Shown one piece after another: positions 1,925 through 57,141 of a stretch of DNA of 64,000 nucleotides. Location: sequence record MN850622.1; one strand, 5' to 3'. The stretch comes from Escherichia phage mobillu. The position numbers were made by a program, and so were the translations under genes. The notes beneath the pieces were generated by a model. It saw only the letters and a list, made by a program, of their open reading frames with translations, was not told the origin of the DNA and searched no databases. The first letter of the stretch is position 1; each line of letters starts with the position of its first letter.

Positions 1925-2223
1925 TGGCTCAAATCCTATCAGGCTTTGGAACTCATTATGAAGCGTCTAGACGCATAACTGAAAGCAATCCTTTTGGCCT
2001 TGTTCCGAAGCACAAGAAAATTCAAAGCCTTGATGACTTTGAGAACCGCCTATGGGCCCTCTTTAATGAGTACAAGGCATATCTGAAAGAAGACGCTGAC
2101 GATTGTCTTGAAGAAGATGAGATTGCGTATTACGAACAACGCCTTGAACAGCTAAAGAACTTCCATCAGGTTCGTGACGAAGTATCTAAAGCAGTTAAAA
2201 AGTTAATTCCTTTCAAAGAGTAG
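1924..2223 (+). CDS. hypothetical protein
   Basis: ORF; TAATG overlap with upstream gene. Confidence 0.55.
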
Positions 2224-2270
2224 TTTACTTCTCCTCTAGTTGTGTTACTATAGACTTGTCAACTAGAGGA
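2223..2270 (+). promoter_or_regulatory. T4-type early promoter with embedded inverted repeat (PeSL-like)
   Basis: GTTTAC 2223-2228, TG-TTACTATAGA -10 region; 12-bp inverted repeat CTCCTCTAGTTG 2231-2242 / CAACTAGAGGAG 2259-2270 that includes the downstream SD. Confidence 0.55.
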
Positions 2271-2279
2271 GAAATCAAA

Positions 2280-2738
2280 ATGACTATCAATTCGGAAGTT
2301 TTTATCCGCCGTAATAAACTCCGTCGAATCTTTGAAACGGAGTTCCGCAAAATAAATGCCGGTATAAAAGATGCTGCAAAGTCTCTTGGACTACCAGGCT
2401 TTCATATCAAGTATTCTCAACATCTCTTAGATCGTGCCATCCAGAGAGAAATAGATGAGAATTACGTTTTTGAATTATTTCATAAAGTAAAAAATCACGT
2501 TAAAGAAGTTGCAGAATTTTTATCAATGCCGGCACGTCCGGATGTTGATGAAGATTTTGTCGAAGGTGTCGAATATCGCCCAGGCCGTTTAGAAATAACT
2601 GACGGAAATCTTTGGTTAGGACTTACAGTTTGTCGCGAAAATCCGGCATTCAAAATGAAGACTCTTCAATGCAGAATGGCTATTATTAACAGTAAACGAC
2701 TACCAGGAAAAGCTTCTAAAGCAGTGATTAAAATCTAG
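2280..2738 (+). CDS. regB: RegB endoribonuclease
   Basis: 152 aa; MTINSEVFIRRNKLRR...LKYSQHLLDRAIQREIDE...EYRPGRLEITDGNLWLG...LQCRMAIINSKRLPGKASKAVIK matches T4 RegB as I recall it; start at ATG 2280 after GAGGAG. Confidence 0.8.
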   Translation: MTINSEVFIRRNKLRRIFETEFRKINAGIKDAAKSLGLPGFHIKYSQHLLDRAIQREIDENYVFELFHKVKNHVKEVAEFLSMPARPDVDEDFVEGVEYRPGRLEITDGNLWLGLTVCRENPAFKMKTLQCRMAIINSKRLPGKASKAVIKI

Positions 2739-2746
2739 AGGTAAAC

Positions 2747-3289
2747 ATGAGAAAAGCACTACTCGCTGGTCTATTTGCTCTTTCATTATCAGCACATAGC
2801 TCCGAGCATACTTTTAGTAATGTCCAACTCGATAACTTGAATTATGCTTATCAGTTTGGGGAACAGTTTTCTAAGGACGGAAAATTTAAAACGCATGAAA
2901 ATATGCATAAGAAAGGGCTTGGATACATAATGGCCGCAATACTATGGCAGGAATCATCCGCCGGTATTAATTTTAAAGATAAGAAAGGTCACCATGCGTA
3001 TGGAATGTTCCAAAATTATCTACCAACAATGAGGGCAAGAATTAACCAGCTTGGTTATAATATGACTGATGCCCAAATTAAGAAAATGCTATCTAAGCGG
3101 TCTAATTCAGCCAGATGGGCTTATATCGAATTTTCTTATTGGTTAAATATACATAACGGGGATATAAGAAAAGCTATATCCTCATATAATGCGGGATGGA
3201 AGACAAGTGCTGGAAGTAAATATGCTTCTGAAGTCCTAGAAAAGGCTAATTACCTTAAATCAAATAAACTACTGGAAATAAAAGAATGA
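2747..3289 (+). CDS. secreted lytic transglycosylase-like protein (SLT-like)
   Basis: N-terminal signal peptide; ILWQESSAG motif resembling the SLT catalytic E-S segment. Confidence 0.55.
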   Translation: MRKALLAGLFALSLSAHSSEHTFSNVQLDNLNYAYQFGEQFSKDGKFKTHENMHKKGLGYIMAAILWQESSAGINFKDKKGHHAYGMFQNYLPTMRARINQLGYNMTDAQIKKMLSKRSNSARWAYIEFSYWLNIHNGDIRKAISSYNAGWKTSAGSKYASEVLEKANYLKSNKLLEIKE

Positions 3290-3633
3290 CCAAAATGTTG
3301 GCTTTAATAGTTAGCTTGGTTTCATTTAACGCTCTTGCTAATACTACATATACTGATGTAACGGAGTATACAAACAGAACGGCGTCTGATTATTGTGGTA
3401 AAAGTCAAGAGTGTAAAGTAGATTTTTCACAAAAATTGTTATACGCGTATAAAGACGGAGAAAAAGATGGGGCGTCTAGTAGGTTCAAGGCGTCTACCTT
3501 AATTAAAAGATACTATAAAAAATGGCAAATATTAGAATGCTCGGTGGCGGAACCTAAAGATAAGGCAGCATGCAATTCTATGGTGGACCGTCTAGTTGAC
3601 TCTTATAATAGAGGACTTGCAGCAAGTGATTAA
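3286..3633 (+). CDS. hypothetical secreted protein
   Basis: ORF with signal peptide (MTKMLALIVSLVSFNALA), 4 Cys. Confidence 0.55.
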   Translation: MTKMLALIVSLVSFNALANTTYTDVTEYTNRTASDYCGKSQECKVDFSQKLLYAYKDGEKDGASSRFKASTLIKRYYKKWQILECSVAEPKDKAACNSMVDRLVDSYNRGLAASD

Positions 3634-4093
3634 AAACTATATCAAGGGCGATATTGTCGCCCTGTTTTCTAAAGGTAATAATATTGCTCATGGGTGTAAT
3701 TGTTTTCATACAATGGGCGCCGGTGTAGCAGGACAATTAGCAAAGGCTTATCCAAAAATTCTTGAAGCAGATAAACTTCAAACCGAATTCGGAGACAAGT
3801 CTAAACTCGGGACTTATTCGGTTTATGAAAAATATTTTAAGACCCATAAAGCTTATTGCTTTAATCTTTATACACAGTTTGAGCCGGGACCTAATTTTGA
3901 GTACTCTGCTTTAATGAATTGTATAATAGAATTAAATGAATTCGGAAAGAATAAGATAACAAAGCCTGTAATTTATATGCCAAGAATTGGTGCAGGTATT
4001 GGTGGTGGAAACTGGGATGTCATCGAAGAGATTTTAGATACGTATTCTACTAAACTAGAAATTGTGATTGTTGATTGGGAACCGTTATTATGA
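3596..4093 (+). CDS. macro-domain protein (ADP-ribose binding/processing family)
   Basis: GDIV...N.AHGCN...GAGVAGQ and later GIGGG segments resemble macro-domain motifs; overlaps upstream ORF by 38 nt. Confidence 0.55.
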   Translation: MTLIIEDLQQVIKNYIKGDIVALFSKGNNIAHGCNCFHTMGAGVAGQLAKAYPKILEADKLQTEFGDKSKLGTYSVYEKYFKTHKAYCFNLYTQFEPGPNFEYSALMNCIIELNEFGKNKITKPVIYMPRIGAGIGGGNWDVIEEILDTYSTKLEIVIVDWEPLL

Positions 4094-5875: not shown

Positions 5876-5927
5876 GTTTACTTCTCCTCAGGTTGTGTTA
5901 TAGTAAACCTTACTTACTAGAGGAGAA
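5876..5927 (+). promoter_or_regulatory. T4-type early promoter (PeSL-like)
   Basis: GTTTAC 5876-5881, TG-TTATAGTAA; inverted repeat TCTCCTC/GAGGAGA spanning the SD. Confidence 0.5.
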
Positions 5928-5931
5928 CGTT

Positions 5932-6111
5932 ATGTCACGTAAAGAAAAAATTTCTAAGTTAATGTTTTTGATTGAAGAGTACGCTAATGCGGTATCTGAT
6001 TGGGAAAATGCTCATGGTTGCGAAGATGGAGACATCGACATTAACAGAGCTATGAAAAAGATGGCTGACGCCCACACCGAATTGCAAATGTATGTTAACG
6101 AGATTATGTGA
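5932..6111 (+). CDS. hypothetical small protein
   Basis: ORF 5863..6111, start placed at ATG 5932 after GAGGAG. Confidence 0.5.
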   Translation: MSRKEKISKLMFLIEEYANAVSDWENAHGCEDGDIDINRAMKKMADAHTELQMYVNEIM

Positions 6112-6118
6112 GGATATT

Positions 6119-6325
6119 ATGCTTTACGATTATACTGGAAAATCTGAAGACGGTGTACTTGAGCTTTTACCTGAAAGCGCTGAAGATGATGATATGGTGG
6201 TGATGTTTTGTAAAAATGGACCTGGGGATAAGGGATGGATTTATCTTCGTCAAGAAAATGACTTAATTGTTTTGGACCCTAAACAAGTTGAAGAACTTTA
6301 TCAACATTTAAAACACAATCGGTAG
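6119..6325 (+). CDS. hypothetical acidic protein
   Basis: ORF 6092..6325, start placed at ATG 6119. Confidence 0.5.
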   Translation: MLYDYTGKSEDGVLELLPESAEDDDMVVMFCKNGPGDKGWIYLRQENDLIVLDPKQVEELYQHLKHNR

Positions 6326-6362
6326 TTTACATCTTGGTAGGACTATGTTATAGTAGTCCTAT
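6325..6362 (+). promoter_or_regulatory. T4-type early promoter (PeSL-like)
   Basis: GTTTAC 6325-6330, TG-TTATAGTAG; inverted repeat AGGACTA/TAGTCCT. Confidence 0.5.
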
Positions 6363-6382
6363 CAAAACAAACGGAGAACAAA

Positions 6383-6493
6383 ATGAAACTTTTGCTTATC
6401 GCTTATGTTGTAGTACAATACAATTATCCGATGTTTACTTATAACATGGTAAACGGCATAGTGAATCTTATTGAAACGAGTATGGTAAAATGA
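6383..6493 (+). CDS. hypothetical micro-ORF (36 aa, hydrophobic)
   Basis: ATG with RBS ACGGAG; below the ORF-track size cutoff. Confidence 0.25.
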   Translation: MKLLLIAYVVVQYNYPMFTYNMVNGIVNLIETSMVK

Positions 6494-8993: not shown

Positions 8994-9019
8994 GGGGGTT
9001 AAAATATTTTTAAAAAGTA

Positions 9020-9056
9020 GTGTACATGCTTTTAGGATATGATACTATAGACCTAT
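9020..9056 (+). promoter_or_regulatory. candidate early promoter
   Basis: TGTACA -35-like, TACTATAGACC -10 region as in other cassettes. Confidence 0.35.
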
Positions 9057-9086
9057 CGAAACGAAATGAGTAAATTGGAGAATAAA

Positions 9087-10067
9087 ATGTTCAACGTTCA
9101 AATCAAAAAAGGTATCTATCGTAATAACGAAATCTCTGGTTCTTATGTTGCCACAAAGACCTGGTTCCCGGCAAAGCTTAATCCTGAATGTTCCCACTTA
9201 GGTGATGGTAAAATTTTCGTTATGATTGATGGATCTGAACGTGGAGTATGGGTCTTCAAATCAGACATCGTAATGGAAGGAGTTGAGACGTCACCAGTTG
9301 CAGTTGTTGAAAGCACTGAAGATATGAAAACTCGTATCAACAAACGCTTTAAAGTAATGAACATGATGACGAATGGCATTATCGATGGCAAAATTCGTTC
9401 ACTCATTATTTCAGGTGCAGCTGGTATTGGTAAGACGTATTCTCTGGATAAAGCACTTAATAATGCTAATGATAATGGTTTCATCAAATACAAAAGCATT
9501 AATGGTAAAATCTCTGGTATTGACCTTTACGAACAACTTTGGCTCAACCGTGATGCAGACAGCGTTCTCTTAATCGATGACGTTGACGTATTCTCAGATA
9601 TGGACATCCTGAACCTTCTTAAAGCAGCATTAGATACCGGAGATAAACGCAAAGTTTGTTGGAGCACTGCGTCATCTTATCTCGAGGATAAGGGTATTGA
9701 TAAAGAATTTGAGTTTGAAGGTACTATCGTTTTCATTACAAACGTTGATATCGATAAAGAGTTAGAACGGGGTTCGAAACTTGCTCCACACCTTCAAGCT
9801 TTAGTATCTCGTTCAGTGTATCTCGACCTTGGAGTACACTCTAATGAAGAGATTATGGTTCGAGTTGAAGATGTAATATTATCTACTGACATGATGCAGA
9901 AACGTGGTCTGACGGATGCAGAAACGTATAAAGCATTGTCCTGGATGAAGGCTAACGTATCTCGTCTTCGCAATGTATCATTACGTACGGCTCTTTATGT
10001 AGCAGATTTTATTTCAACTGATAAAGATGGTTGGGAAGAAATCTCGGAAGTTACTTTACTGAAATAA
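9087..10067 (+). CDS. AAA-type P-loop ATPase-like protein
   Basis: Walker A ISGAAGIGKTY, Walker B VLLIDDVD; start placed at ATG 9087 after GGAG (ATG 9066 possible). Confidence 0.6.
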   Translation: MFNVQIKKGIYRNNEISGSYVATKTWFPAKLNPECSHLGDGKIFVMIDGSERGVWVFKSDIVMEGVETSPVAVVESTEDMKTRINKRFKVMNMMTNGIIDGKIRSLIISGAAGIGKTYSLDKALNNANDNGFIKYKSINGKISGIDLYEQLWLNRDADSVLLIDDVDVFSDMDILNLLKAALDTGDKRKVCWSTASSYLEDKGIDKEFEFEGTIVFITNVDIDKELERGSKLAPHLQALVSRSVYLDLGVHSNEEIMVRVEDVILSTDMMQKRGLTDAETYKALSWMKANVSRLRNVSLRTALYVADFISTDKDGWEEISEVTLLK

Positions 10068-10495: not shown

Positions 10496-10533
10496 GTTTA
10501 CAAGGTCTATGGTTATGTTATTATAGACCTATC
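10496..10533 (+). promoter_or_regulatory. T4-type early promoter (PeSL-like)
   Basis: GTTTAC 10496-10501, TG-TTATTATAGACC; inverted repeat GGTCTAT/ATAGACC. Confidence 0.5.
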
Positions 10534-10551
10534 AACTACTGGAGGTAAAAC

Positions 10552-11079
10552 ATGAACGCTAAAGATATTTTCAACCTGGTGAATTATAACGACGGTAAAT
10601 TTAAATCTGAAGCACAAAGCAAGTTCTTTAATGACGTTGCTTATGGTAACGAGATTACCGTGGACGGAGGTCAGATTTTCAAATCTCGCTGGAATTGGAT
10701 TGTTATCATCGATTCAGTTGGAATTGTGGAAGTCTACAAAAACACTAACAAAAAACGTACATTATTCTGGTCTCGTGAAACTAACGAGCAGTACAAAAAG
10801 GATAAAGCATCTCGTTTATCCAAAGTAACCCAGGAAGATATCGAGTTTATCAAGAAAGATATCGAGATGTACGAAAATTTAATTGCTGAAGACCAGGCAG
10901 TACTCGATAAGTTTGATGAAATTAAAGCTTCTCGTGAAATCCCTGACTTCATGAAAGAAACAGTAAACGAACGATACGCTCTCACTTCAGAACGTATTGC
11001 AAACTATACAAAACAGAAAGCAGAACGTATTAGTACTCTTCGGAAATTTGAAGAACGTTTAAAGACGGTTCACGCATAA
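10552..11079 (+). CDS. hypothetical protein
   Basis: ORF 175 aa with RBS GGAGG. Confidence 0.55.
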   Translation: MNAKDIFNLVNYNDGKFKSEAQSKFFNDVAYGNEITVDGGQIFKSRWNWIVIIDSVGIVEVYKNTNKKRTLFWSRETNEQYKKDKASRLSKVTQEDIEFIKKDIEMYENLIAEDQAVLDKFDEIKASREIPDFMKETVNERYALTSERIANYTKQKAERISTLRKFEERLKTVHA

Positions 11080-11141: not shown

Positions 11142-12137
11142 ATGAGCATTACATCTGATGCGGTAAAACATGAAATTAACGGTTTATGTGCTTCACAGAT
11201 TAAAGTGTGGTTTAAAGACCATAACGATCGCAGAGCACTTAATTATGAACAAATTGCTATCCAAGTTCATCAATTACTGGTTAGTAAATTTGATTTTCAT
11301 ATGCCGTCTGAAATCTATACTAATCTGCCGCGAGCACTTATTAAAGCGTGTAAAGGTTATGGAAAATCAATGGCTGATGGAATCTTCAGCGCGCTGAATA
11401 AACTTAACGTTCTGTCGATGATTAACTCTAACAACATCCTGCGTAATCTAGGACGTACTGATTTGTTCGGCCGTGAACAGTGTAAAATGCCTTTGAAATG
11501 GATTGTTGCTCATCTTAACGAGAACCAAACACGTTTTATGGCCGTAACAGCACGCTTACAAATGGGCCTAGATCGTCAGATGAACTTTAAAACTCATCCA
11601 CGTTATTCAGGTTCAACTGACTTTTATAAATGTGAGCTTCAAAAGGTCGGTGGCAAAACCGTCTTAGTAGTTCGTGTAACGTTTGAAGGACGACGTCAAG
11701 GATATTTTGACATAATCGGCTCTGGACTTAAACATTGTGGATTTATCGACGAAGTTGATATCAAGCGAGACGGCGTTGGATACCGTATTGGGTATGTTTG
11801 TACTCTTAAAGAAGAGATTTCAGGACCAGCTCCAGGACTAAAAGACGTTAGATATAAAGACGAGCTCGTTGAAGAAATAAAAGAAGTTGAATATGATATC
11901 AACCAAGAAGATGCTCTTAAAGACCTTATTGATGAACTGAACCAAGACGTTATTCCGGTTCAGAAATTTGAATCAAAACATGCTGAGCAAATCAAATACT
12001 TTGAAGCTTTGATTAACGAACTTAATGTAACTATTCAACAGACTGACGATGAAATCTCACGATTAGCAGGCTTAAACGGTAAAAATAAAACAGAACGAGC
12101 TAATCTTATTCAAGTAGTAAAACTTCTTAAGGAATGA
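11142..12137 (+). CDS. hypothetical protein with C-terminal coiled coil
   Basis: ORF 331 aa; C-terminal heptad-rich segment. Confidence 0.6.
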   Translation: MSITSDAVKHEINGLCASQIKVWFKDHNDRRALNYEQIAIQVHQLLVSKFDFHMPSEIYTNLPRALIKACKGYGKSMADGIFSALNKLNVLSMINSNNILRNLGRTDLFGREQCKMPLKWIVAHLNENQTRFMAVTARLQMGLDRQMNFKTHPRYSGSTDFYKCELQKVGGKTVLVVRVTFEGRRQGYFDIIGSGLKHCGFIDEVDIKRDGVGYRIGYVCTLKEEISGPAPGLKDVRYKDELVEEIKEVEYDINQEDALKDLIDELNQDVIPVQKFESKHAEQIKYFEALINELNVTIQQTDDEISRLAGLNGKNKTERANLIQVVKLLKE

Positions 12138-12166
12138 TGTACAACCAAGGATGGTTGGAGTATAAT
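12137..12166 (+). promoter_or_regulatory. early promoter cassette
   Basis: ATGTAC-AACCAAGGATGGTTGGAG-TATAAT. Confidence 0.5.
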
Positions 12167-12192
12167 AAATTTTTCAACATGAGGAATATAAA

Positions 12193-13152
12193 ATGGCTTT
12201 TATTACACGTAGAGAACTTATCAAAGAATTTACCTCGAACGCATATACTCCAGGACCTAATCCTATCCGTATGCCTGTAAAGACTCCTGAAGAGATTGAG
12301 GAAATCTGTTCATATTATGGGATTACTTCTCGTAAGTTTACTCAATTTGAATGCGTTACTAACACACCCGTTAAAGAGTTCATTAAAAATGGCGAGTTCA
12401 GCCGTTTATTGGCCAAACAGAAACTTCGTAATTTTTGTATTGGCGGTGAAGGACAATATTTCGCTAAGCAGTTCCGGAATAACCTTAACAATCTGATGGC
12501 CATTGCTTCTCGTATTCGTCCTCAAGCAATTAACATGAAACATTTGAAATATACTTACGATAAGTTGGAAATCATGGTTATCAGTGAGAACGAGTTCACT
12601 CTCACGTATAAACCTAAGAATGATAACGTTGCTCGTGTATTCCACCAAGCGTTGGAAGTGTTAGGTGATAATATTCACCAGATTAAAGCAATTTATTCTC
12701 GTGAGCTTAATATTATCAACCCTATCAAGAATAAGGGCCATATCGCTATCCAGGCTCGTGTATCTATTGGTAAAAAGGTTCCTGCGCCATGGTGGCACAA
12801 AGACTCCGAATATTATCAAAATCTTAAAAAGGAAAATGCATTGTTTGAAGCATCGCTTACTGGGACCCCAATTGAACAGGCCGAAGTCCTAAGTGCTTAT
12901 TCTACTTCGGGTAAATCAATGTTTAAAGGTTTGCCAAATGTGTGCAAACTGTCTGCAGTAAAACTAAATGTTTCTAATGACCTTCTTCCGGTCGAAGATT
13001 ACCATTACAATCAAATCAAGGCCACTATGGACCAACTGTCTGTTGAACTTGACAAAGCACAAGCTAAGCTTCGTGATGCTCAAAGTGTTGTAACGAATCT
13101 CCAGTTGCAGTATTCTAAACTTTTTAACGCAATGAATGCGTTAAAATCATAA
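12193..13152 (+). CDS. hypothetical protein with C-terminal coiled coil
   Basis: ORF 319 aa; C-terminal heptad-rich segment. Confidence 0.6.
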   Translation: MAFITRRELIKEFTSNAYTPGPNPIRMPVKTPEEIEEICSYYGITSRKFTQFECVTNTPVKEFIKNGEFSRLLAKQKLRNFCIGGEGQYFAKQFRNNLNNLMAIASRIRPQAINMKHLKYTYDKLEIMVISENEFTLTYKPKNDNVARVFHQALEVLGDNIHQIKAIYSRELNIINPIKNKGHIAIQARVSIGKKVPAPWWHKDSEYYQNLKKENALFEASLTGTPIEQAEVLSAYSTSGKSMFKGLPNVCKLSAVKLNVSNDLLPVEDYHYNQIKATMDQLSVELDKAQAKLRDAQSVVTNLQLQYSKLFNAMNALKS

Positions 13153-13156: not shown

Positions 13157-13186
13157 GTTTACAACCAAGGATGGTTGGAGTATAAT
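13157..13186 (+). promoter_or_regulatory. early promoter cassette
   Basis: GTTTAC-AACCAAGGATGGTTGGAG-TATAAT, identical 30-mer also at 55021. Confidence 0.55.
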
Positions 13187-13214
13187 GAATTTATCTTAAC
13201 GAGAGGAAAATATT

Positions 13215-14165
13215 ATGACACGTTCACATTACATTGAATACTTTGCAGGTCTTATCGCTAACGTTCATGCCCAACGTGCTTCTGGTGTACTAGGATTTGA
13301 TGTTCCACACCGAGATGTAGTAAGTGGTATTCTTCGAGATTTTGGTACATACGTAGGCCAAGAAAATCATATCTGTAAAGATACTCAAAATGCATATTCT
13401 CATTCATTAGGGACACTGCTTCAATGGTTCAAACGTTCTCGTTTATTATCTTCTACTGTAGCTCGCGATAACATTAAAAACTTTATGAAGCCGAGCTTTA
13501 TTAAATCTGTGACATCTAAAACCGATTTGGTTGAATTCACTATTGTTAATGATGTTAAAAAGACTCATTTGGCTGATTGGTTAACTACCATTCCTGAAAC
13601 TAAATTTGCCGATAAATTTGCTTGTGAATTCAATAACCAAGTGAATATGCTTTTTAAACATTCTCGTAAATTATTCACAGGCGGCGATTCTCGTACAAAT
13701 ACAGTTCATGCTAAAGATTGGGTTACTGCAGTGTTCAAACCAACCGGTAATGGTACCGCATCATTATCAATTGATATTCAGGTTCCTTATTATCACTCAC
13801 GTAATCTCGGCACCATGAAAGCTGAAGAAATTAAGAAGCACAATAAAACCATTCGTTCGCTGTCTTATAAACTTCGCATGATGTTAAGAATCATGGACGT
13901 GGTAGAAATGTATGATGAAACCGAAGATAATGGTTCAATGTTATACAGTTCTCGCATTCAAATTAAGTTGAAGAACCCTAACGAGTATAAGCCTAAGCCT
14001 ATTAAAGAGCCTAAAGCAGAAAAAGTTGATAACTTAAGAGAAGAACGCGAATATCTCAAATCTCGTCTGAAAGAAGTCGAAGCCCAGATTGCAGAACAAA
14101 CTAAATCGTTAAAAGCTCTGAATGCGAAAGCGGATGGTTTACGAAATGCCATTGAGGTGTTATAA
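13215..14165 (+). CDS. hypothetical protein with C-terminal coiled coil
   Basis: ORF 316 aa; C-terminal heptad-rich segment. Confidence 0.6.
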   Translation: MTRSHYIEYFAGLIANVHAQRASGVLGFDVPHRDVVSGILRDFGTYVGQENHICKDTQNAYSHSLGTLLQWFKRSRLLSSTVARDNIKNFMKPSFIKSVTSKTDLVEFTIVNDVKKTHLADWLTTIPETKFADKFACEFNNQVNMLFKHSRKLFTGGDSRTNTVHAKDWVTAVFKPTGNGTASLSIDIQVPYYHSRNLGTMKAEEIKKHNKTIRSLSYKLRMMLRIMDVVEMYDETEDNGSMLYSSRIQIKLKNPNEYKPKPIKEPKAEKVDNLREEREYLKSRLKEVEAQIAEQTKSLKALNAKADGLRNAIEVL

Positions 14166-21272: not shown

Positions 21273-21512
21273 ATGGCCCAAGAATTAGATTTTATCAAAT
21301 TCAAAAAACACCTCGACGTTAAAATTGGGGATTCAATTGTTAGGATTGAGTATGACATTTTAACAGATGCTATTACTATTAGTTGTGATGGAAATAGTTT
21401 CAGCTTCGATACAACCGAAAACAAATACCCAATCTATAAAGGCATCTTTGATATGGGTGTTGATATTACTCCACGTGATACAAATTACTTACTTTTCATG
21501 CTTAAAAAATAG
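21273..21512 (+). CDS. hypothetical protein
   Basis: ORF 79 aa with RBS GAGGAAAA. Confidence 0.5.
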   Translation: MAQELDFIKFKKHLDVKIGDSIVRIEYDILTDAITISCDGNSFSFDTTENKYPIYKGIFDMGVDITPRDTNYLLFMLKK

Positions 21513-21578
21513 TATACAAACTCTTGAGAGATGAGTATAATTCTCTCGTTGGATAATAAAATAACCGAGGAAAATAAT

Positions 21579-21911
21579 ATGTCTACTAAAATCAAAAACG
21601 TAGTTAATTCTTTCGCTTTCGATAAAGTTGTTGCTCTTCTGGAATCTGGCAATATTGTTACTCCTCAAGTTCTTGACGCATGGGAATTCCGTCTTTATGA
21701 AATCATGCAAAAACACAACCAGAAAATTGGACGTAATTCTATTCGTGAAATTCTAGTGCAATATATTCTTTCTGAATTTGACGTTGCTGCGTTTGGTGTT
21801 GAATCTAAAGCTTATCAGAAACATGAAATCTCTGAAAAGACTATCCGTCGTATGAAAAATCAACGTAAGAAAAAATTCGTTGACCTGAAAATTGTTAAGG
21901 CGGCAAAATGA
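21579..21911 (+). CDS. hypothetical protein
   Basis: ORF 21531..21911, start at ATG 21579 after GAGGAAAA. Confidence 0.5.
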   Translation: MSTKIKNVVNSFAFDKVVALLESGNIVTPQVLDAWEFRLYEIMQKHNQKIGRNSIREILVQYILSEFDVAAFGVESKAYQKHEISEKTIRRMKNQRKKKFVDLKIVKAAK

Positions 21912-43048: not shown

Positions 43049-43078
43049 GTTTACATCTTCCTCTAGGCATGATATGAT
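43049..43078 (+). promoter_or_regulatory. candidate early promoter
   Basis: GTTTAC 43049-43054 and TATGAT 18 nt downstream. Confidence 0.4.
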
Positions 43079-43107
43079 GTACTTACACCAACCAAGAGGA
43101 AAACATT

Positions 43108-43482
43108 ATGAATATGTCTCAAGCAATTTTTACTGTAATCACCGAAAACACAACTGTTGAAGTAGTTTCTCCACTGGCAACCTACGTTATTCTTGCTCCT
43201 AAAACTATTGTATCTCGTATGGAAAACATGGGCAAACGTATCGTACAAATAGTTGGAGCCGGAAATCAAAAACTTGATTATCTACGAACCATCAAAGCTT
43301 ATGAACATTTCCAACTCGAAAAAGGTTCTCCTATCCAGGTAGAACTCGTAAATGGTGATATCGTTCGAGCAATGTTCCATCATTTCTATGCATTGAATGA
43401 CCCATCTAAAGCGGTTCGTTTAATTGCATACGACGCAAACCAAAACGAAATCAACGCAGATGTATCTAAATTACGTTTTTAA
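43108..43482 (+). CDS. hypothetical protein
   Basis: ORF 124 aa with RBS AAGAGGAAA. Confidence 0.55.
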   Translation: MNMSQAIFTVITENTTVEVVSPLATYVILAPKTIVSRMENMGKRIVQIVGAGNQKLDYLRTIKAYEHFQLEKGSPIQVELVNGDIVRAMFHHFYALNDPSKAVRLIAYDANQNEINADVSKLRF

Positions 43483-43531
43483 GTTTACTTCTCCAGTAGT
43501 TGTGTTATTATAGATCTATCAACTACTGGAG
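43483..43531 (+). promoter_or_regulatory. T4-type early promoter (PeSL-like)
   Basis: GTTTAC 43483-43488, TG-TTATTATAGA; 12-bp inverted repeat CTCCAGTAGTTG/CAACTACTGGAG. Confidence 0.55.
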
Positions 43532-43537
43532 AACAAA

Positions 43538-43855
43538 ATGAAAACCATCGATTGTAAAGCAGAATTTAAGATTTTTTATCACGGTTCAAGTAGTTCAGCT
43601 AACATCGAAAACATGCTTTGTCCTCCTGAAGAAACAGGAGTTCTGTCTGAAACTGGACGTAAGAAAAACTTGGATCGTGTATTCTTTACTGAAGATATCG
43701 GTTTAGCAAAGATTTATGCAGGACGAGCAGCACGCTCTTATGGAGGTGAACCACGTCTCTATCGAGTAATTTCTCCGGTAGATGTAGTTCAAATGAATGA
43801 TACTAAAGGCGCTACAGTTTATCACGCTGAATGGGCATTTTGCGAGGAAATATGA
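43538..43855 (+). CDS. hypothetical protein
   Basis: ORF 105 aa immediately upstream of and coupled to dmd. Confidence 0.55.
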   Translation: MKTIDCKAEFKIFYHGSSSSANIENMLCPPEETGVLSETGRKKNLDRVFFTEDIGLAKIYAGRAARSYGGEPRLYRVISPVDVVQMNDTKGATVYHAEWAFCEEI

Positions 43856-44793: not shown

Positions 44794-44830
44794 GTTTACA
44801 TTATAGATGGACTATAGTATAGTAGTCCTA
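44794..44830 (+). promoter_or_regulatory. T4-type early promoter (PeSL-like)
   Basis: GTTTAC 44794-44799; inverted repeat GGACTA/TAGTCC. Confidence 0.5.
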
Positions 44831-44852
44831 TCAAATCAACTAAGGAGTTAAA

Positions 44853-45146
44853 ATGAAAAAGTTATCATTGGCAGCAATCTTACTTGCAGTATCATGTGCA
44901 CCGGCTCCAGTTACGGCAGGTTATGATAAAGACCTCTGTGAGTGGTCAATGACTGCAAATCAAGAAGATGTTGAACAACAAATCTTCTCTGATATCATGA
45001 ACATCACTAAACGAGACCGTCCTAATATGGTTAATAAAGTTGTTGAACAACTTAAGTCTGGCGGTATCATGCAGTACAACTATGTTTTGTATTGTGACCC
45101 TAATTTCGATAACAAAGATATCGTAACCGAAATCACAGGTGAATAA
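44853..45146 (+). CDS. sp: Spackle-like periplasmic protein (tentative)
   Basis: 97 aa with signal peptide; AGYDKDLCEWSMTA...YNYVLYCD resembles T4 Sp as I recall it. Confidence 0.5.
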   Translation: MKKLSLAAILLAVSCAPAPVTAGYDKDLCEWSMTANQEDVEQQIFSDIMNITKRDRPNMVNKVVEQLKSGGIMQYNYVLYCDPNFDNKDIVTEITGE

Positions 45147-50159: not shown

Positions 50160-50160
50160 T

Positions 50161-50340: not shown

Positions 50341-50501
50341 AAGAGAAATTGAAAGAGAAATTCTTACTAGAAATCAAGGAAAAAGACTTTGAGACATGGT
50401 ATCGAATGGTGAAAGGGTTGACATTGCTTTTTAAAGCATCCTTATTCATGTTAGAACAACCTGGCCCTGATGGACCTTTAGTAGGAAAGCTTAAAAAGTA
50501 G
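50337..50501 (+). CDS. hypothetical small protein (54 aa)
   Basis: ATGA coupling with upstream stop; below ORF-track cutoff. Confidence 0.35.
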   Translation: MKEKLKEKFLLEIKEKDFETWYRMVKGLTLLFKASLFMLEQPGPDGPLVGKLKK

Positions 50502-50535
50502 TTTACATTCCCTCCTCTCGTGTTATGATAGGCTT
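50501..50535 (+). promoter_or_regulatory. candidate early promoter
   Basis: GTTTAC 50501-50506, TG-TTATGATAGG. Confidence 0.45.
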
Positions 50536-50556
50536 ATCTTTAAATGGAGGTCTATC

Positions 50557-51138: not shown

Positions 51139-51196
51139 TGTACAAACTCTTCCAATGATGATACTATTACCTTTATCAACCACAGGAGAAACCTAA

Positions 51197-51805: not shown

Positions 51806-51957
51806 CTGAATTGGAATAACCGGATGGAACTCAGAACCATTATAACACATAAAAAATTAAAGCATTTTACGAAAAAAGAGTGTACACTACCTGAGGGCAT
51901 GATATTATAAGCTTATCAGCTAAATGACTTAACGTCCGTAAGACAGAGGAAAATATT

Positions 51958-52704
51958 ATGTTATCAAATAATAAAATTAACAAAATCAATCGTCGTCTTG
52001 ACCACACCAGAGCTTCTGCGAAGAGACGCTCTAAGGATTTTAACTTAGACTTTAATTACCTTAAAAACATTCTTGATCAAAAGGTCTGCGCTTACTCAGG
52101 TGAATCTTTCAATAACTCTGTTGAAGGTGAGAAATTATCCTTAGAACGTTTTAATAACGATATCGGCTACATTAAAGGTAATGTTATCCCGGTTAAGAAA
52201 AAATATAACACGGCTCGTTCTGATTTAACATTAGAAGAACTTATTGAGAAACGTGACGCTGTTGCAAGACGTATCGCTAATCCTTCTGCCCGTAAAGTAG
52301 AGAAACTTAATCTCGACGAGAAGAAATGGGCCCAAATTAAAAAGGTTTATGATACTATTTTAAAAATCCGAGCAAAACGTGAAAATCGTGTTAAGCATAT
52401 GGCGAACATGATGAAAAATCAACCTTTATCTAACGAATCTAAACTTAGAATTGTTGCTTTGAAAGCACGCATTAATGGCTCACATCAAGCAGAAGGCCAT
52501 GAACTTACTAAACTCAACGTTCTTCTTAAAGGCTCTGACTGGAAAACTAAAACTAAATTAACTGACGCTGAATCGCTTTTCGATACATATGATAAAGTTA
52601 TCCAAGGTCTGCAACGCTTTGAAAAGATTGGTTTCATTGGTAAATTAAAATTGAAACGTGGCTTACCACTTAGCGCATCATTATTCCAACTGATTAAAGG
52701 TTAA
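51958..52704 (+). CDS. hypothetical basic protein (srd position)
   Basis: 248 aa; position corresponds to T4 srd between modA and dda. Confidence 0.5.
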   Translation: MLSNNKINKINRRLDHTRASAKRRSKDFNLDFNYLKNILDQKVCAYSGESFNNSVEGEKLSLERFNNDIGYIKGNVIPVKKKYNTARSDLTLEELIEKRDAVARRIANPSARKVEKLNLDEKKWAQIKKVYDTILKIRAKRENRVKHMANMMKNQPLSNESKLRIVALKARINGSHQAEGHELTKLNVLLKGSDWKTKTKLTDAESLFDTYDKVIQGLQRFEKIGFIGKLKLKRGLPLSASLFQLIKG

Positions 52705-52706
52705 TT

Positions 52707-53018
52707 ATGGTTTATGTATATGCAATAGTTTATCGAGATATGGAAGGATTTACCGTCCCGGTTCCACTTGATGAGCATCGTCCTGCAGTATTTTTTAGAA
52801 AGGATATTGCAGATAAAGTTTTCGATACTTTGAAAACACAGTATAAAACAGATTTAAAAATGGGAGTTCTAAGAATGGTCGAAACTCCGCGTAAGTTCTG
52901 GTTTAATAAGCTTGAAATGAAACACGTTAAACTAGATGCGGAGACGCAAAGATTGTATCAACGAATCCTGGACACAGGCCGTATTGTTAGTATTCCAATT
53001 GCAGGGACTTTACGATGA
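52707..53018 (+). CDS. hypothetical protein (dda.1 position)
   Basis: ORF 103 aa. Confidence 0.5.
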   Translation: MVYVYAIVYRDMEGFTVPVPLDEHRPAVFFRKDIADKVFDTLKTQYKTDLKMGVLRMVETPRKFWFNKLEMKHVKLDAETQRLYQRILDTGRIVSIPIAGTLR

Positions 53019-54328
53019 CATTTGATGATTTGACTGAAGGCCAGAAAAACGCCTTCAACGTTGTTATGGAAGCTATTAAAGAAAAGAAACATCACGTAAC
53101 TATTAATGGGCCTGCTGGTACAGGTAAAACAACCCTTACTAGATTTATTGTTGAAGCTCTTATTTCTTCAGGAGAATCAGGTATTATTTTAGCAGCCCCT
53201 ACACATGCTGCTAAAAAGGTTCTAAGCAAACTTGCGGGTCAAGAAGCATCGACTATTCATAGCATTCTTAAAATCAACCCAACTACATACGAAGAAAACG
53301 TATTGTTTGAACAGAAAAAGGTTCCCGACTTAGCCTTGTGCCGTGTACTGTTATTTGATGAAGCGTCAATGTGTGACCGTTCTCTGTTTAAAATAATGTT
53401 AGCTAGTATCCCTAAATGGTGTACAGTAATTGGAATTGGTGACCGATGCCAGATTCGTCCAGTAGACCCAGGTGAATCAACTGCGTATCTAAGTCCTTTC
53501 TTCACTCACAAAGACTTTGTGCAATGCAACCTTACAGAAGTTAAACGTAGCAATGCACCAATTATTGATGTTGCGACTGATATTCGTAATGGCAAATGGA
53601 TTTACGATAAAGTAGTTGATGGACACGGTGTTCATGGATATACAGACCTTAAATCGTATATGATGAACTATTTTAACGTTGTTAAAACTCCTGAAGACCT
53701 TTTCGAAAATCGAATGATGGCATTCACAAATAAGTCGGTGGACAAGTTAAATTCAATTATTCGCCGAAAACTTCTTGAAACAGAAAAACCATTTATTAAA
53801 GACGAAGTCATTGTTCTACAAGAGCCATTTACTAAGACATATAAGCTAGATGGTAAAAATATGACCGAAATGCTTTTCAATAACGGGCAATTCGTTCGTA
53901 TTCGAGATGCTGTAGAAACGTCTACATTCGTTAAAGCACGTGGTGTTTCAGGCGAATATATGATACGATACTGGAATCTTACAGTAGAAACATATGGGGA
54001 TGATGAAGAATACATCCGCGAAGATATAAAGGTTATTTCTTCTGAAGAAGAGCTTTATAAATTCAATTTGTTTTTGGCTAAGACCGCAGAAACATACAAA
54101 TTTTGGAATAAAGGTGGTAAAGCCCCATGGAGCGAATTCTGGGATGCTAAACGCATGTTCACTAAGGTGAAGGCACTACCTGTATCAACCTTCCATAAGG
54201 CCCAGGGTATATCTGTTGACACGGCCTTTGTTTATACACCGTGTATCCATTATGCCGATTCAGAATTAGCCAAACAATTACTATATGTCGGCACGACTCG
54301 TGGTCGTTTTGACGTCCATTTTATTTGA
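53015..54328 (+). CDS. dda: SF1 DNA helicase Dda
   Basis: 437 aa; Walker A GPAGTGKTT, Walker B LLFDEASM; N-terminus MTFDDLTEGQKNAFN matches T4 Dda as I recall it. Confidence 0.9.
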   Translation: MTFDDLTEGQKNAFNVVMEAIKEKKHHVTINGPAGTGKTTLTRFIVEALISSGESGIILAAPTHAAKKVLSKLAGQEASTIHSILKINPTTYEENVLFEQKKVPDLALCRVLLFDEASMCDRSLFKIMLASIPKWCTVIGIGDRCQIRPVDPGESTAYLSPFFTHKDFVQCNLTEVKRSNAPIIDVATDIRNGKWIYDKVVDGHGVHGYTDLKSYMMNYFNVVKTPEDLFENRMMAFTNKSVDKLNSIIRRKLLETEKPFIKDEVIVLQEPFTKTYKLDGKNMTEMLFNNGQFVRIRDAVETSTFVKARGVSGEYMIRYWNLTVETYGDDEEYIREDIKVISSEEELYKFNLFLAKTAETYKFWNKGGKAPWSEFWDAKRMFTKVKALPVSTFHKAQGISVDTAFVYTPCIHYADSELAKQLLYVGTTRGRFDVHFI

Positions 54329-54337
54329 GAGAAAATT

Positions 54338-55015
54338 ATGAGCACTGATGTTATTATAGATTTTGAAACATTCGGCAATACATCAAAAGCGGCTGTTATT
54401 GACCTTGCGGTTATTGCATATAATTCCGACCCTGAAGTTGTTGAATCATTTGAAGAACTTGTTCAACGAGGTAAGCGAATTAAATTTAATTTAGCTTCTC
54501 AGAAAGGGAAGCGAGTTTTCGCTAAATCCACTATGAAATGGTGGAAAGAGCAATCGGCTGAAGCACGTAAAAACTTGGCCCCGTCTGAAGACGATGTCAC
54601 TACGCTTGAAGGCATTAAAATCTTTTTAGATTATTGTCGAGCTAATAAAGTTGACCAATGGAAATCACAGATGTGGTGCCGTGGTATGAGCTTTGACTTC
54701 CCGATCTTGGTCGATTTGATTCGTGACCTCTATCGTGATGAAGGTGTTCTTGAACCAGATATTGATACTGATAAATTAGAACCGGTTAAATTCTGGGCTC
54801 AACGTGATATTCGTACGGCAATCGAAGCTTACTCGTTGACACGAGGATTAAGTATGTGTCCATTACCGATGGGTACGCTAAAAGGATTCGTTGCCCATGA
54901 TAGTATTCATGATTGTGCTAAAGATATTTTGATGTTAAAATATGCTCAGCGTTATGCGCTTGGCCTTGAAGATGTCCCTGAGAATCCTGACCCATTAAGT
55001 GTAAAACAGCGATAA
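54338..55015 (+). CDS. dexA: exonuclease A (DEDD family)
   Basis: 225 aa; N-terminal IIDFETFG (DEDD motif I); synteny downstream of dda. Confidence 0.75.
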   Translation: MSTDVIIDFETFGNTSKAAVIDLAVIAYNSDPEVVESFEELVQRGKRIKFNLASQKGKRVFAKSTMKWWKEQSAEARKNLAPSEDDVTTLEGIKIFLDYCRANKVDQWKSQMWCRGMSFDFPILVDLIRDLYRDEGVLEPDIDTDKLEPVKFWAQRDIRTAIEAYSLTRGLSMCPLPMGTLKGFVAHDSIHDCAKDILMLKYAQRYALGLEDVPENPDPLSVKQR

Positions 55016-55020
55016 AACCG

Positions 55021-55050
55021 GTTTACAACCAAGGATGGTTGGAGTATAAT
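55021..55050 (+). promoter_or_regulatory. early promoter cassette
   Basis: GTTTAC-AACCAAGGATGGTTGGAG-TATAAT, identical to 13157-13186. Confidence 0.55.
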
Positions 55051-55081
55051 CTTTCTATCTTAACCAAACAGGAAAAACATT

Positions 55082-55576
55082 ATGAATATCAATACTACGG
55101 CTACTTACATCCTGAAAGACGAAAAACAAATCAACTGGTACGGTGCTTCAGTGCGAGCTTATGAAAAGTTTTGTGAAATTTTAGGTGCCACTCAAGGTAA
55201 TAGTTTCACTATTGTTAACTTCATCAAACAAGCTGAAGGCCCTTGGTTATTCTTAGAAATTAAAAATTCATACGGTACAATTTCTACTGCCGCCCTTCCA
55301 AGCACCGACTTTGAACTGTTGATTGAAGAAGTAGAACCTGTTAAAGACATCTGTATTGATATGGATATCGCTTGTATGTACGGTACTCTGATTAAGCCTA
55401 TTGAGCCTACTGATTTGTTGTGTAAATATGTTTCAATTCGACGACCGTTCGCTGGTCCAGTAAATGGCTGGGTGTCTGACCAGTGGATTGAAGAAGGTGT
55501 TGAACTTCTGAACGTTGTTCATGCAGGTGATTTTAGTGTAGTTCCACGTAGTGCTGTGGTTAATATCCTTAATTAA
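55082..55576 (+). CDS. hypothetical protein, paralog family member A
   Basis: 164 aa; C-terminal GWVSDQWIEEGVELLNVVHAGDFSVV shared with next two ORFs. Confidence 0.6.
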   Translation: MNINTTATYILKDEKQINWYGASVRAYEKFCEILGATQGNSFTIVNFIKQAEGPWLFLEIKNSYGTISTAALPSTDFELLIEEVEPVKDICIDMDIACMYGTLIKPIEPTDLLCKYVSIRRPFAGPVNGWVSDQWIEEGVELLNVVHAGDFSVVPRSAVVNILN

Positions 55577-55578
55577 TG

Positions 55579-55608
55579 TTGTACATCCAAGGATGGATGG
55601 AGTATAGT
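55579..55608 (+). promoter_or_regulatory. early promoter cassette variant
   Basis: TTGTAC-ATCCAAGGATGGATGGAG-TATAGT. Confidence 0.5.
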
Positions 55609-55638
55609 GAATTCAATTTAAACAAAGAGAGAGAAATT

Positions 55639-56094
55639 ATGATTGCTATTGGTGAAATTAAGCGTGTATCGTCTGCATCTCGTTCTAAAGCTGCAGGTCG
55701 TCTAGTTGAAGTGGTAGGACTTCGTACTAATGGTACTGGTCGTGTTAAAGAAGTTAAAGTTCGAATCATTCCTAGTTCTGGAAAAACTGAAACTCAGTAC
55801 GCTTACGTAAGTCCTAAATTTTTGGAAACTCATGTGAGCGCTCATTTTGCTTCTACTGAACCTAATGCACAGTTCAAATGGGCCCTTTGCAAAGGTGTTG
55901 AATTCCAGACTGATAAAGAATTTGACTTCATCGATGAATATGGTTATCCAAGCAAAACTGATACTATGTGTGGCTTCATTAGTGACCAATGGGTTGAAGA
56001 TGGTGAAAAGTTATACAATATCGTATTCTTAGGTGACTTCCGAGTTGTTAAAGAATCTGAAATCACTCGCTATGTGTCTCCTCGTAAAGCTTAA
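55639..56094 (+). CDS. hypothetical protein, paralog family member B
   Basis: ORF 55576..56094 begins inside the promoter; start placed at ATG 55639 after GAGAGAG; shares N- and C-terminal motifs with 56104 ORF. Confidence 0.6.
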   Translation: MIAIGEIKRVSSASRSKAAGRLVEVVGLRTNGTGRVKEVKVRIIPSSGKTETQYAYVSPKFLETHVSAHFASTEPNAQFKWALCKGVEFQTDKEFDFIDEYGYPSKTDTMCGFISDQWVEDGEKLYNIVFLGDFRVVKESEITRYVSPRKA

Positions 56095-56103
56095 GGAATT
56101 ATT

Positions 56104-56523
56104 ATGAATATTGTAAATCTCTCTACAGGTGATTACGTATATGTATCCGTTGCTTCTCGCTCTAAAGTTGCCGGGAAGTTGGTTGAAGTTCTTTCTGTGA
56201 GTGATCCGGTTTTTGGACGTAACGAAGTTAAAGTTCGTGACGCTGATGGTAACATTGGTTATGTCTCAAGCCAATTCATTGAACCAGAAGAAAAAGCGTT
56301 CAAATGGGGACTATGCAGATCAGTTTCTGTTGAAAAAGACCATGAATTCACTATTGCTGCGGCAACTGATGGAACACCGTGGAAAACTAAGCAAATCGCC
56401 GGATTTATTAGCGACCGTTGGGTAGAAGATGGTGTTAAGCTTTATAACATCGTTTTCGCTGGACAGTTCATGGTAGTTCCTGAATTCCAAATTAAAAAAT
56501 ATAGCCCAGCTGCTTTTGCATAA
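56104..56523 (+). CDS. hypothetical protein, paralog family member C
   Basis: 139 aa; SRSK.AG.LVEV and GFISD.WVEDG..LYNIVF.G.F.VV shared with member B. Confidence 0.6.
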   Translation: MNIVNLSTGDYVYVSVASRSKVAGKLVEVLSVSDPVFGRNEVKVRDADGNIGYVSSQFIEPEEKAFKWGLCRSVSVEKDHEFTIAAATDGTPWKTKQIAGFISDRWVEDGVKLYNIVFAGQFMVVPEFQIKKYSPAAFA

Positions 56524-56527
56524 AGTT

Positions 56528-56576
56528 GTTTACTTCTCCTCTGGTTTTGATATTATAACCATATCAACCAGAGGAG
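56528..56576 (+). promoter_or_regulatory. T4-type early promoter (PeSL-like)
   Basis: GTTTAC 56528-56533; 11-bp inverted repeat CTCCTCTGGTT/AACCAGAGGAG. Confidence 0.55.
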
Positions 56577-56582
56577 AATAAT

Positions 56583-57107
56583 ATGTTAGTTTACCGCGTA
56601 GAACGTAGTTTTTGTACTCAACGTGAATCATTACCAGGAATTGCTATCGAAGACGGTAAAGCCGTCAGAATTTGGGAAACCTCTTGGAATAAAGAACCTC
56701 GCTCGCCGTACGGTTGGTCGGGCACCGACAACTCTGAAGAAACATGGGAGTTCCTTGATAAACACGGAATACTCTCAGGTAACTTCTACCATCACGGCGA
56801 CAACTATAATGTCCCTAATCGTCCTACAGTAAATGAAGACAAACTCCTTGAACAAAATATCTTAAGATACCATAGAATTGAGTACACATTTGAATTGAGT
56901 GAAGATTGGGCTCAAGGGTTCTATTTTGGATTTGAAAGTGTTGACGCGGTTTATGCATGGTTTGATGACCAGGTGGATGTTGAACTCTTGAAAGCTAAAG
57001 GATACTACATCGCGGTCTATGAAGCACCTGATTTCATCCTCGGAAGTTGTCAATTAATGTTCAGACGTTCATTGGCAGAACAAGTTGATTTTATTTTGCT
57101 AAAATGA
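56583..57107 (+). CDS. hypothetical protein
   Basis: ORF 174 aa. Confidence 0.55.
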   Translation: MLVYRVERSFCTQRESLPGIAIEDGKAVRIWETSWNKEPRSPYGWSGTDNSEETWEFLDKHGILSGNFYHHGDNYNVPNRPTVNEDKLLEQNILRYHRIEYTFELSEDWAQGFYFGFESVDAVYAWFDDQVDVELLKAKGYYIAVYEAPDFILGSCQLMFRRSLAEQVDFILLK

Positions 57108-57141
57108 TGTACAACAACTATGGTCTATGATACTATAGACC
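57108..57141 (+). promoter_or_regulatory. candidate early promoter (PeSL-like)
   Basis: TGTACA, TACTATAGACC; inverted repeat GGTCTAT/ATAGACC. Confidence 0.45.

Follow-up and report, generated by a model that had tools for sequence, protein, structure and literature searches.

What does an inverted repeat do when it lies across an early promoter of a T4-like phage, with one arm in the spacer that separates the -35 box from the -10 box and the other arm downstream of them? The question is raised by a 64,000-nt stretch of Escherichia phage mobillu (MN850622.1; hereafter the window), in which a family of early promoters carries such embedded repeats. A first-pass annotation had described them as mobile promoter/stem-loop cassettes whose stem would hide the ribosome-binding site (RBS) in the mRNA. 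The results below point instead to hairpins that would form only in RNA reading through from an upstream promoter. The window covers the early region of a Mosigvirus, a T4-like coliphage: its first 20 kb share 98% identity with Mosigvirus, e.g. Escherichia virus vB_Eco_mar005P1, and early transcription proceeds along its + strand. Its genes begin with vs.8 and continue to regB, vs, tk, the nrdC.x genes, 49, nrdD, and nrdG, followed by replication genes and by gene 41, dmd, imm, sp, 61, 56, soc, modB, modA, srd, dda, dexA, motB, cef, and 39.

The motif GTTTAC-N16-18-TAnnnT was found 21 times in the window (20 times on the + strand), compared with 2.58 +/- 1.58 times in dinucleotide shuffles, and permitting one mismatch in the -35 box gives 24-26 T4-type early promoters on the + strand. 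Their layout consists of GTTTAC, a 17-18 nt spacer, TGn (at most sites), TAnnnT, a (C)TATCAAC-like start region, a Shine-Dalgarno sequence (SD), and ATG, and the 30 nt upstream of the -35 box contain 70% A+T (n=26 sites), against 63% +/- 8% in random 30-mers from the window. The sites precede regB, imm, sp, modA, modB, srd, motB, and other early genes. They occur at densities of 0.6 and 0.9 per kb in two variable regions (0-21.6 kb and 43-57.2 kb, respectively), and the window-wide motif search detected none in the replication-gene block at 21.6-43 kb. A generic sigma-70 scan showed no discrimination (62 found vs 67 expected; 69 vs 63), so that only the T4-specific motif is informative. The regB promoter of T4 has been experimentally characterised as a 'typical early promoter', and activity right after infection without phage proteins is known solely for this ortholog (PMC3014915). 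The motif excess and the T4 precedent support the assignment of the window promoters to the T4-type sigma-70 early promoters (Pe), as the first-pass annotation had claimed. The literal, TATAG-ending string given there fits only a subset (three sites in the first literal search, owing to spacing).

The embedded repeats were evaluated by pairing each spacer with its own downstream segment (cis) or with the downstream segments of the other promoters of the family (trans), a control that keeps both consensus and composition. In the window, the mean longest stem is 6.4 bp in cis and 4.75 bp in trans, and none of 20,000 permutations reached 6.4; stems of at least 7 bp are present at 8 sites, whereas 2.6 are expected (P = 0.00075). 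The three long stems at sites 2223, 43483, and 56528 (sites are named by their first coordinate; Table 1) fold as RNA at -23 to -24 kcal/mol with z-scores of -3.4 to -5.3, and the stems that flank the -10 box at 6325, 10496, and 44794 lengthen to 11-13 bp via G.U pairs (z -2.6 to -3.2). All of the repeats quoted previously are present, displaced by at most 1 nt. Those at 2223 and 43483 (14 bp) and 56528 (13 bp) are longer than had been reported, whereas the AGGACTA repeat placed at 44809 is actually GGACTA/TAGTCC, of 6 bp. When the MotA-box middle promoters of the window were scanned for the same repeats, one of approximately 15 had one; the feature is thus essentially early-promoter-specific.

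The cis/trans comparison was extended to 273 unique promoter sequences from 43 related contigs or loci, comprising tk-anchored loci (42 T4-like contigs, ~20 kb each) and others. Exact repeats of at least 8 bp between the spacer and the downstream segment occur in 29% of cis and 2.1% of trans pairs, and, after clustering to 152 groups, in 23 and 1.6%, respectively, with 0 of 5000 permutations reaching the observed count; the excess of repeats over the cross-pairing control is thus seen both in the window and in related genomes. Two classes can be distinguished. In the SD-pairing class (45 sequences), the 3' arm contains the SD; in the -10-flanking class (49 sequences), it falls between ~2 nt before and 13 nt after the end of the -10 hexamer, which leaves the SD free. 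The regB promoter alone is represented by 34 distinct upstream sequences with at least nine different SD-pairing stems, e.g. TCTAGTTG/CAACTAGA, TCTTGACTG/CAGTTAAGA, TCTTTATG/CATAAAGA, TGTAAG/CTTACA, and TTTTAGT/ACTAAAA. Some regB lineages contain a -10-flanking stem in place of the SD-pairing stem (GGGCCAT/ATGGCCC and AGGGCTAT/ATAGCCCT), and the most distant regB promoters have a terminator upstream and no embedded repeat. Orthologous regB promoters thus keep pairing while their stem sequences diverge.

Alignment of 16 regB promoter orthologs with MAFFT followed by RNAalifold yielded zero consensus pairs, owing to register shifts of the arms. In a replacement alignment anchored on the SD/anti-SD core, which is biased towards pairing, 11 of 14 pairs have changed on both sides, and the covariation score was 0.486, compared with 0.14 for shuffles (0/500) and ~0.1 for slid partners. 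Mismatches within paired stems are asymmetric: G.T was found 24 times and A.C 6 times (13 and 2 times among cluster representatives, P = 0.007), whereas trans chimeras gave 15 and 31, respectively. The direction of this bias argues for selection acting on the single-stranded sense strand, of which RNA is the simplest form. When IMG/VR was scanned with the proteins of gene 61 and motB.2, only close relatives were retrieved.

Which RNA can form the hairpin follows from the position of the arms. The first 13-14 nt of the spacer make up the 5' arm, which places it ~20-30 nt 5' of any sigma-70 start site. By this geometry, a transcript from the promoter itself would start within the loop or the 3' arm and could not form the stem, so that the hairpin can form only in read-through RNA. 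In partition-function folding, the unpaired probability of the SD in read-through and own-promoter RNA was 0.00 and 0.85 at 2223, 0.00 and 0.75 at 43483, and 0.00 and 0.46 at 56528, and the mean for the SD-pairing class was 0.02 and 0.37, respectively. The -10-flanking class (0.34 vs 0.44) resembles repeat-less promoters (0.33 vs 0.50); at 6325, for example, the SD is free (0.41 vs 0.37). SD masking that acts only in read-through RNA is thus well supported computationally, and the predicted coupling is between the origin of a transcript and its translation, rather than through a hairpin in the cassette's own 5' untranslated region. That the stem hides the RBS of the mRNA, as had been proposed, is not supported in that form, since both geometry and folding place the 5' arm outside the promoter's own mRNA. 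RBS masking is not a general feature either: the SD takes part in only a minority of the repeats, and the others leave it accessible. To describe the repeats as often pairing with the SD was generous, as among 24 sites three show strong pairing of this kind (2223, 43483, and 56528) and two show it less strongly (5876 and 43049).

The surroundings of the promoters indicate where read-through would matter. A terminator-like hairpin is present within 70 nt upstream of 4 of the 94 embedded-repeat promoters but of 47 of the 179 others (P = 2.6e-6); among cluster representatives, the corresponding numbers are 2/44 with and 24/108 without an embedded repeat (P = 0.008). At embedded-repeat promoters, the median distance from the end of the preceding open reading frame (ORF) to the -35 box is 2 nt, and the stop codon abuts this box in 76-89%. 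In orthologs of 43483 that have an upstream terminator, the repeat has decayed to a remnant of 5-6 bp. Owing to this near-exclusive occurrence, embedded and upstream hairpins look like alternatives, the embedded type being found at compact junctions where read-through would be expected.

The window elements are orthologs and paralogs of T4 promoter/stem-loop cassettes, whose stem-loops have been known since 1986. In the T4 record X04567 from that year (58.3-65.5 kb early region), the inverted repeats A/A', B/B', C/C', and D/D' are entered as putative stem-loops with a potential terminator function. The -10 box of the next gene (ipIII, ipII, denV, and ORF 61.9 = regB) lies between the arms of each repeat, and the RBS lies within the 3' arm for denV (repeat C/C') and regB. 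These stem-loops fold as expected, ipII having a -10-flanking 14-bp stem. Site 2223 is the ortholog of the T4 'imp. inverted repeat D/D'' and has the same layout, but the regB stem differs between the window and T4 (TCTAGTTG/CAACTAGA against TCTTGACTG/CAGTTAAGA); phage T4 records contain the T4-like regB upstream sequence with 100% identity. X04567 is silent on which transcripts can form the stem-loops.

In T4 e, soc, 49, and I-TevI, the SD/AUG lies in the 3' arm of a hairpin, transcripts from an internal promoter lack the 5' arm, and longer transcripts are silent (PMC3014915). Sites 2223, 43483, and 56528, but not the -10-flanking sites, similarly contain the SD in the 3' arm of a stable stem, and the own transcripts of the window cassettes would, from their geometry, also lack the 5' arm. 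The internal promoters of the T4 genes are late (TATAAATA) and delay expression, whereas the window cassettes have early promoters and are predicted to confine expression to an early burst. Classic SD/AUG-masking hairpins with late promoters are also kept in the window, at gene 49 and soc (16250-16290 and 48695-48745, respectively): the gene 49 hairpin, ACCCUUAUCU/AGGUAAGGGU, follows a TAATAAATA motif, and the soc stem includes the AUG and is located after TATAAATA.

Analogues of PeSL (promoter-early stem-loop) cassettes in T-even phages, at the 'IP-locus', are said to have been described by Repoila et al. in 1994. PeSLs combine a promoter and a stem-loop, with the stem mostly situated between the boxes or in overlap with the -10 box, and their T-even analogues are T4 early promoters with weaker, A/T-rich stems (PMC2839356, Arbiol et al. 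2010). Stem-loops located upstream, or downstream of the -10 box, are also among the positions given for PeSLs (PMC2839356). The PeSL-like anatomy that had been ascribed to the window elements, i.e. early promoter, stem-loop between or overlapping the boxes, SD, and ATG, was recovered. Further likenesses are the A/T-rich upstream region, the enrichment in variable regions, one cassette-flanked indel (see below), and the A/T-rich stems, weak as in the T-even analogues. In contrast, the PeSLs of RB49 and phi1 have a TTGACA-type -35 box and polyG/polyC stems that behave as terminators (PMC2839356), and the stem-loops of T4 and PST are placed just 5' of the promoter according to PMC4122927 (Comeau et al. 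2014). The accessible parts of these two papers make no mention of spacer-SD pairing. In the literature reached, key older papers excepted, neither the absence of the spacer arm from the promoter's own RNA nor the alternation of embedded and upstream hairpins is stated, and the literature search found no T4 start-site or 3'-end atlas.

Our preferred reading, to which we assign a probability of approximately 0.55, is as follows. The cassettes would sit where an upstream stop codon abuts the -35 box, and the inverted repeat would encode an RNA hairpin formed only in transcripts that started at a promoter further upstream. For the SD-pairing class (2223, 43483, and 56528; more weakly 5876 and 43049), whose 3' arm would be the SD itself, read-through RNA would be masked and untranslatable in vivo, and own-promoter RNA, with its free SD, would give a short early pulse of expression that depends on the gene's own promoter. 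The hairpin of the -10-flanking class (6325, 10496, 44794, and 57107) would most likely be intercistronic, standing in for a separate terminator-type stem-loop, and might attenuate the upstream message or form a barrier at its 3' side; no more than an intercistronic RNA hairpin in place of a terminator-type hairpin is supported by the evidence for this class. The cassettes, repeated and conserved over ~60 bp, may also act as crossover points for the gain or loss of gene cassettes, i.e. PeSL-type shuffling.

Masked read-through RNA would presumably also be resistant to RegB, which cuts GGAG in early SDs, including that of the regB mRNA, and is blocked by secondary structure (PMC3014915, PMC1702504). 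The SD is GGAG in 91% of the SD-pairing class, and sites 43483 (SD region, GGAGAACAAAA) and 6325 fit the RegB consensus GGAGRAYARAA, but the SD-pairing class is not enriched for the full 11-nt consensus. The window cassettes share with known RegB targets, among which is the regB mRNA itself, the GGAG and the A-rich tract in early SDs (PMC3014915). Known targets were defined on unstructured RNA, whereas the window cassettes have a hairpin context in read-through RNA, and no link between such a context and RegB was found in the literature reached.

Several points weigh against the preferred reading. The start sites were inferred from promoter geometry, the sigma-70 start being taken ~7 nt after the -10 box. 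Approximately half of the embedded hairpins miss the SD, and SD masking cannot therefore be the general reason for the hairpins. Both the anchored alignment and the class assignment were picked for pairing, so the unselected cis-vs-trans test is the fairer one, and the orthologs are non-independent, which clustering corrects partly. The folding of sites 5876, 43049, 21512, and 57107 is indistinguishable from that of shuffles. A hairpin formed by the non-template strand of the DNA would likewise be compatible with the sense-strand G.T bias. Finally, the stem-loops were taken as terminators both by the annotators of 1986 (X04567) and by the PeSL authors (PMC2839356).

This last view deserves attention, and we regard it as unlikely but serious: the hairpins would be transcription terminators or attenuators of the upstream gene that overlap the next promoter. 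X04567 labels the orthologous stem-loops 'pot. transcription terminator', a G/C-rich PeSL stem-loop of RB49 lowered lacZ expression about as much as rrnB T1 did (PMC2839356), and the embedded hairpins and upstream terminator-like hairpins substitute for one another. However, the stems in question are A/T-rich and are followed by A/C-rich leaders, e.g. AAAUCAAAAUG or AUCAAAAC, that contain no U tract, and the 15-30 nt loops of the SD-pairing class are unlike those of intrinsic terminators. In a scan of the + strand of the window, no embedded hairpin had a U tract or was called terminator-like, and none combines the G/C-rich stem, short loop, and directly following U tract of an intrinsic terminator.

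The same substitution could reflect a role in RNA stability, as terminator hairpins also protect 3' ends. The hairpins may be barriers that shield the upstream cistron from 3' exonucleases after cuts by RegB or RNase E, with SD masking being incidental. The position of the hairpin 5-8 nt past the upstream stop codon, the sense-strand G.U bias, which fits an RNA role, and the presence of RegB-type GGAG sites in the downstream SDs are all consistent with this explanation. We nevertheless doubt it, because in the SD-pairing class the GGAG sits inside the stem, where structure blocks RegB (PMC3014915) and a cut would be disfavoured.

It is also conceivable, although improbable in our judgement, that the repeats act in DNA as recombination or cruciform elements, by PeSL-type mobility, and have no RNA function. 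A relative (L034) contains a 72-aa ORF between two cassettes, P1 at 14025 and P2 at 14305, whereas the window has a single cassette at 9020, the 5' half of which corresponds to P1 and the 3' half to P2. A crossover between the flanking cassettes would yield exactly the 9020 hybrid, as expected of a PeSL-type indel. In addition, the vs.3 ORF (window 1924-2223) is swapped for an unrelated sequence of another length in L034 and three other relatives (L033, L005, and L012) that are otherwise 96-97% identical, and homology resumes at 2213, adjoining the regB cassette 10 nt 5' of its -35 box. Near-identical cassettes occur 42 kb apart, and PeSL mini-circles have been shown by experiment in RB49 and phi1 (PMC2839356). 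On the other hand, homologous exchange requires shared sequence rather than self-complementarity, and in these promoters pairing is kept while stems diverge. Neither a symmetric duplex nor a cruciform predicts an excess of G.T over A.C. Between close relatives, most indels, including those with breakpoints at 4083/4494, 10065/10234, 15139/15385, and 48298/48700, are located away from cassettes. The association between cassettes and indels is accordingly suggestive rather than demonstrated, and modular gene shuffling, which had been put forward for these cassettes, is favoured by their clustering in variable regions and by one clean cassette-flanked indel (9020) but not by most of the other breakpoints.

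Translational coupling appears decidedly improbable. A ribosome ending at the upstream stop codon might melt the 5' arm and free the SD in read-through RNA, and both the abutting stop codons noted above for hairpin-bearing promoters and the location of the anti-SD at the 5' end of the spacer are compatible with this idea; however, the first paired base lies 5-8 nt past the stop, so that, judging from its known footprint and helicase position, a terminating ribosome would probably open at most 0-2 of 13-15 pairs, and the -10-flanking hairpins would be left unexplained. That the repeats are a chance by-product of the partly symmetric promoter consensus (GTTG...CAAC, TAT...ATA), from which trans pairs do reach 6 bp in 14-22%, was rejected by the cis-vs-trans controls, given that cis pairing far exceeds trans pairing within the same family and that variable stem positions covary.

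If the masking in read-through RNA works as our preferred reading predicts, one gene would have two fates from two promoters with no protein factor needed. The shut-off of early gene expression in T4 is still incompletely explained (PMC2988021), and an RNA-level component would be added to it. More tentatively, and with rather less than even confidence, we suggest that in T-even-like phages a hairpin arm in the early promoter spacer is a general, selected way to tie translation to the promoter of origin. Own-promoter RNA would be open to both ribosomes and RegB and read-through RNA closed to both, which together with RegB would generate a sharp early pulse and help to explain the rapid fall of early protein synthesis; such promoter-of-origin control in T-even-like phages is neither stated nor tested in the literature reached. 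For the annotation and engineering of T4-like therapeutic phages, deletion or relocation of a gene cassette would remove half of a neighbour's hairpin. The covariation, the sense-strand G.U bias, and the near-exclusivity with terminators make regB and denV cheaply testable in T4 itself.

Table 1. Early promoters and promoter-like cassettes of the window, with their inverted repeats and RNA folding values
Coordinates	Strand	Feature	Class or type	Repeat arms	Other elements	Fold (kcal/mol)	z
2223..2282	+	regB early promoter cassette	SD-pairing	TTCTCCTCTAGTTG 2229-2242 / CAACTAGAGGAGAA 2260-2273, 14 bp, exact Watson-Crick	-35 GTTTAC 2223-2228; -10 TACTAT 2246-2251; SD GGAG in 3' arm; ATG 2280	-23.2	-3.4
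5876..5934	+	mobD.2a early promoter cassette	SD-pairing, weakened	TTCTCCTC 5882-5889 / GAGGAGAA 5920-5927, 8 bp	upstream ORF ends 45 nt 5' of -35		-1.2
6325..6385	+	mobD.2 early promoter cassette	-10-flanking	exact repeat TAGGACTA 6338-6345 / 6354-6361	folded: 13-bp stem 6334-6346 / 6353-6365, two G.U pairs, loop GUUAUA	-18.6	-3.2
9020..9089	+	nrdC.10 promoter (GTGTAC)	without strong embedded repeat		terminator hairpin 5' at 8975-9000		
10496..10554	+	nrdC.8 early promoter cassette	-10-flanking	AGGTCTAT 10503-10510 / 10523-10530	folded: 11-bp stem 10503-10513 / 10520-10530	-18.7	-2.7
12137..12195	+	promoter-like cassette (ATGTAC)	small spacer-internal hairpin	AACCA-AGGA-TGGTT			
13157..13217	+	nrdC.3 early promoter	spacer-internal hairpin	AACCAAGGATGGTT			
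21512..21582	+	GTATAC promoter		GAGAGA 21526-21531 / TCTCTC 21542-21547	repeat around TATAAT; weak fold		-1.4
43049..43110	+	early promoter 3' of terminator-like hairpin	weak SD-pairing	TTCCTCT 43058-43064 / AGAGGAA 43095-43101, 7 bp	no fold signal		+0.3
43483..43540	+	early promoter of 105-aa ORF upstream of dmd	SD-pairing	TTCTCCAGTAGTTG 43489-43502 / 43520-43533, 14 bp		-24.4	-5.3
44794..44855	+	sp (spackle) early promoter	-10-flanking	GGACTA 44809-44814 / TAGTCC 44823-44828, 6 bp		-15	-2.6
55021..55084	+	motB.1 early promoter	copy of 13157 cassette		88% identity over 50 nt		
55579..55642	+	motB promoter-like cassette (TTGTAC)	compensated spacer hairpin	ATCCA-AGGA-TGGAT			
56528..56585	+	motB.2 early promoter cassette	SD-pairing	56534-56546 / 56566-56578, 13 bp		-23.9	-4.8
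57107..57167	+	cef promoter (ATGTAC)	-10-flanking	GGTCTAT 57122-57128 / ATAGACC 57135-57141	weak fold		-1.5

Sites 12137, 13157, 55021, and 55579 constitute a four-copy family in which the hairpin lies wholly inside the spacer; two of them, 13157 and 55021, have the same 30-nt core despite a distance of 42 kb. Members of this family precede genes that are apparently tandem-duplicated, nrdC.5/nrdC.3 and motB.1/motB. At 6325, L033 (an IMG/VR contig; 11640-11700) shows a homology break at 6345, in the hairpin loop; a poly-A run and then unrelated sequence follow it, and it was set aside as a likely assembly artefact rather than recombination. The 105-aa hypothetical protein encoded downstream of 43483 (43538-43855), just 5' of dmd, is conserved in 50 viral contigs, at identities down to 55%, including 230-kb genomes.

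Another good match to the early promoter motif is located at 14137-14167, in the 3'-terminal part of the nrdC.3 ORF. Its -10 box (TATAATG) overlaps the start codon (ATG, 14165) of the next ORF, and a second SD and ATG are found ~30 nt further 3', so the annotated start of that ORF may be wrong. At 27197-27262, a site resembling a MotA-box middle promoter (aaaCGCTTTA, 12 nt, TATAAT) contains an 8-bp repeat, GATGTGGT/ACCACATC, around the -10 box and precedes a 66-aa ORF with the SD GGAGAACAAC. Small ORFs in the 48700-56250 region (48774, 55730, and 56204) have a common repeated coding motif (...GTTAAAGAAGTTAAAG...), which suggests that they form a paralogous small-protein family spread across the variable region.

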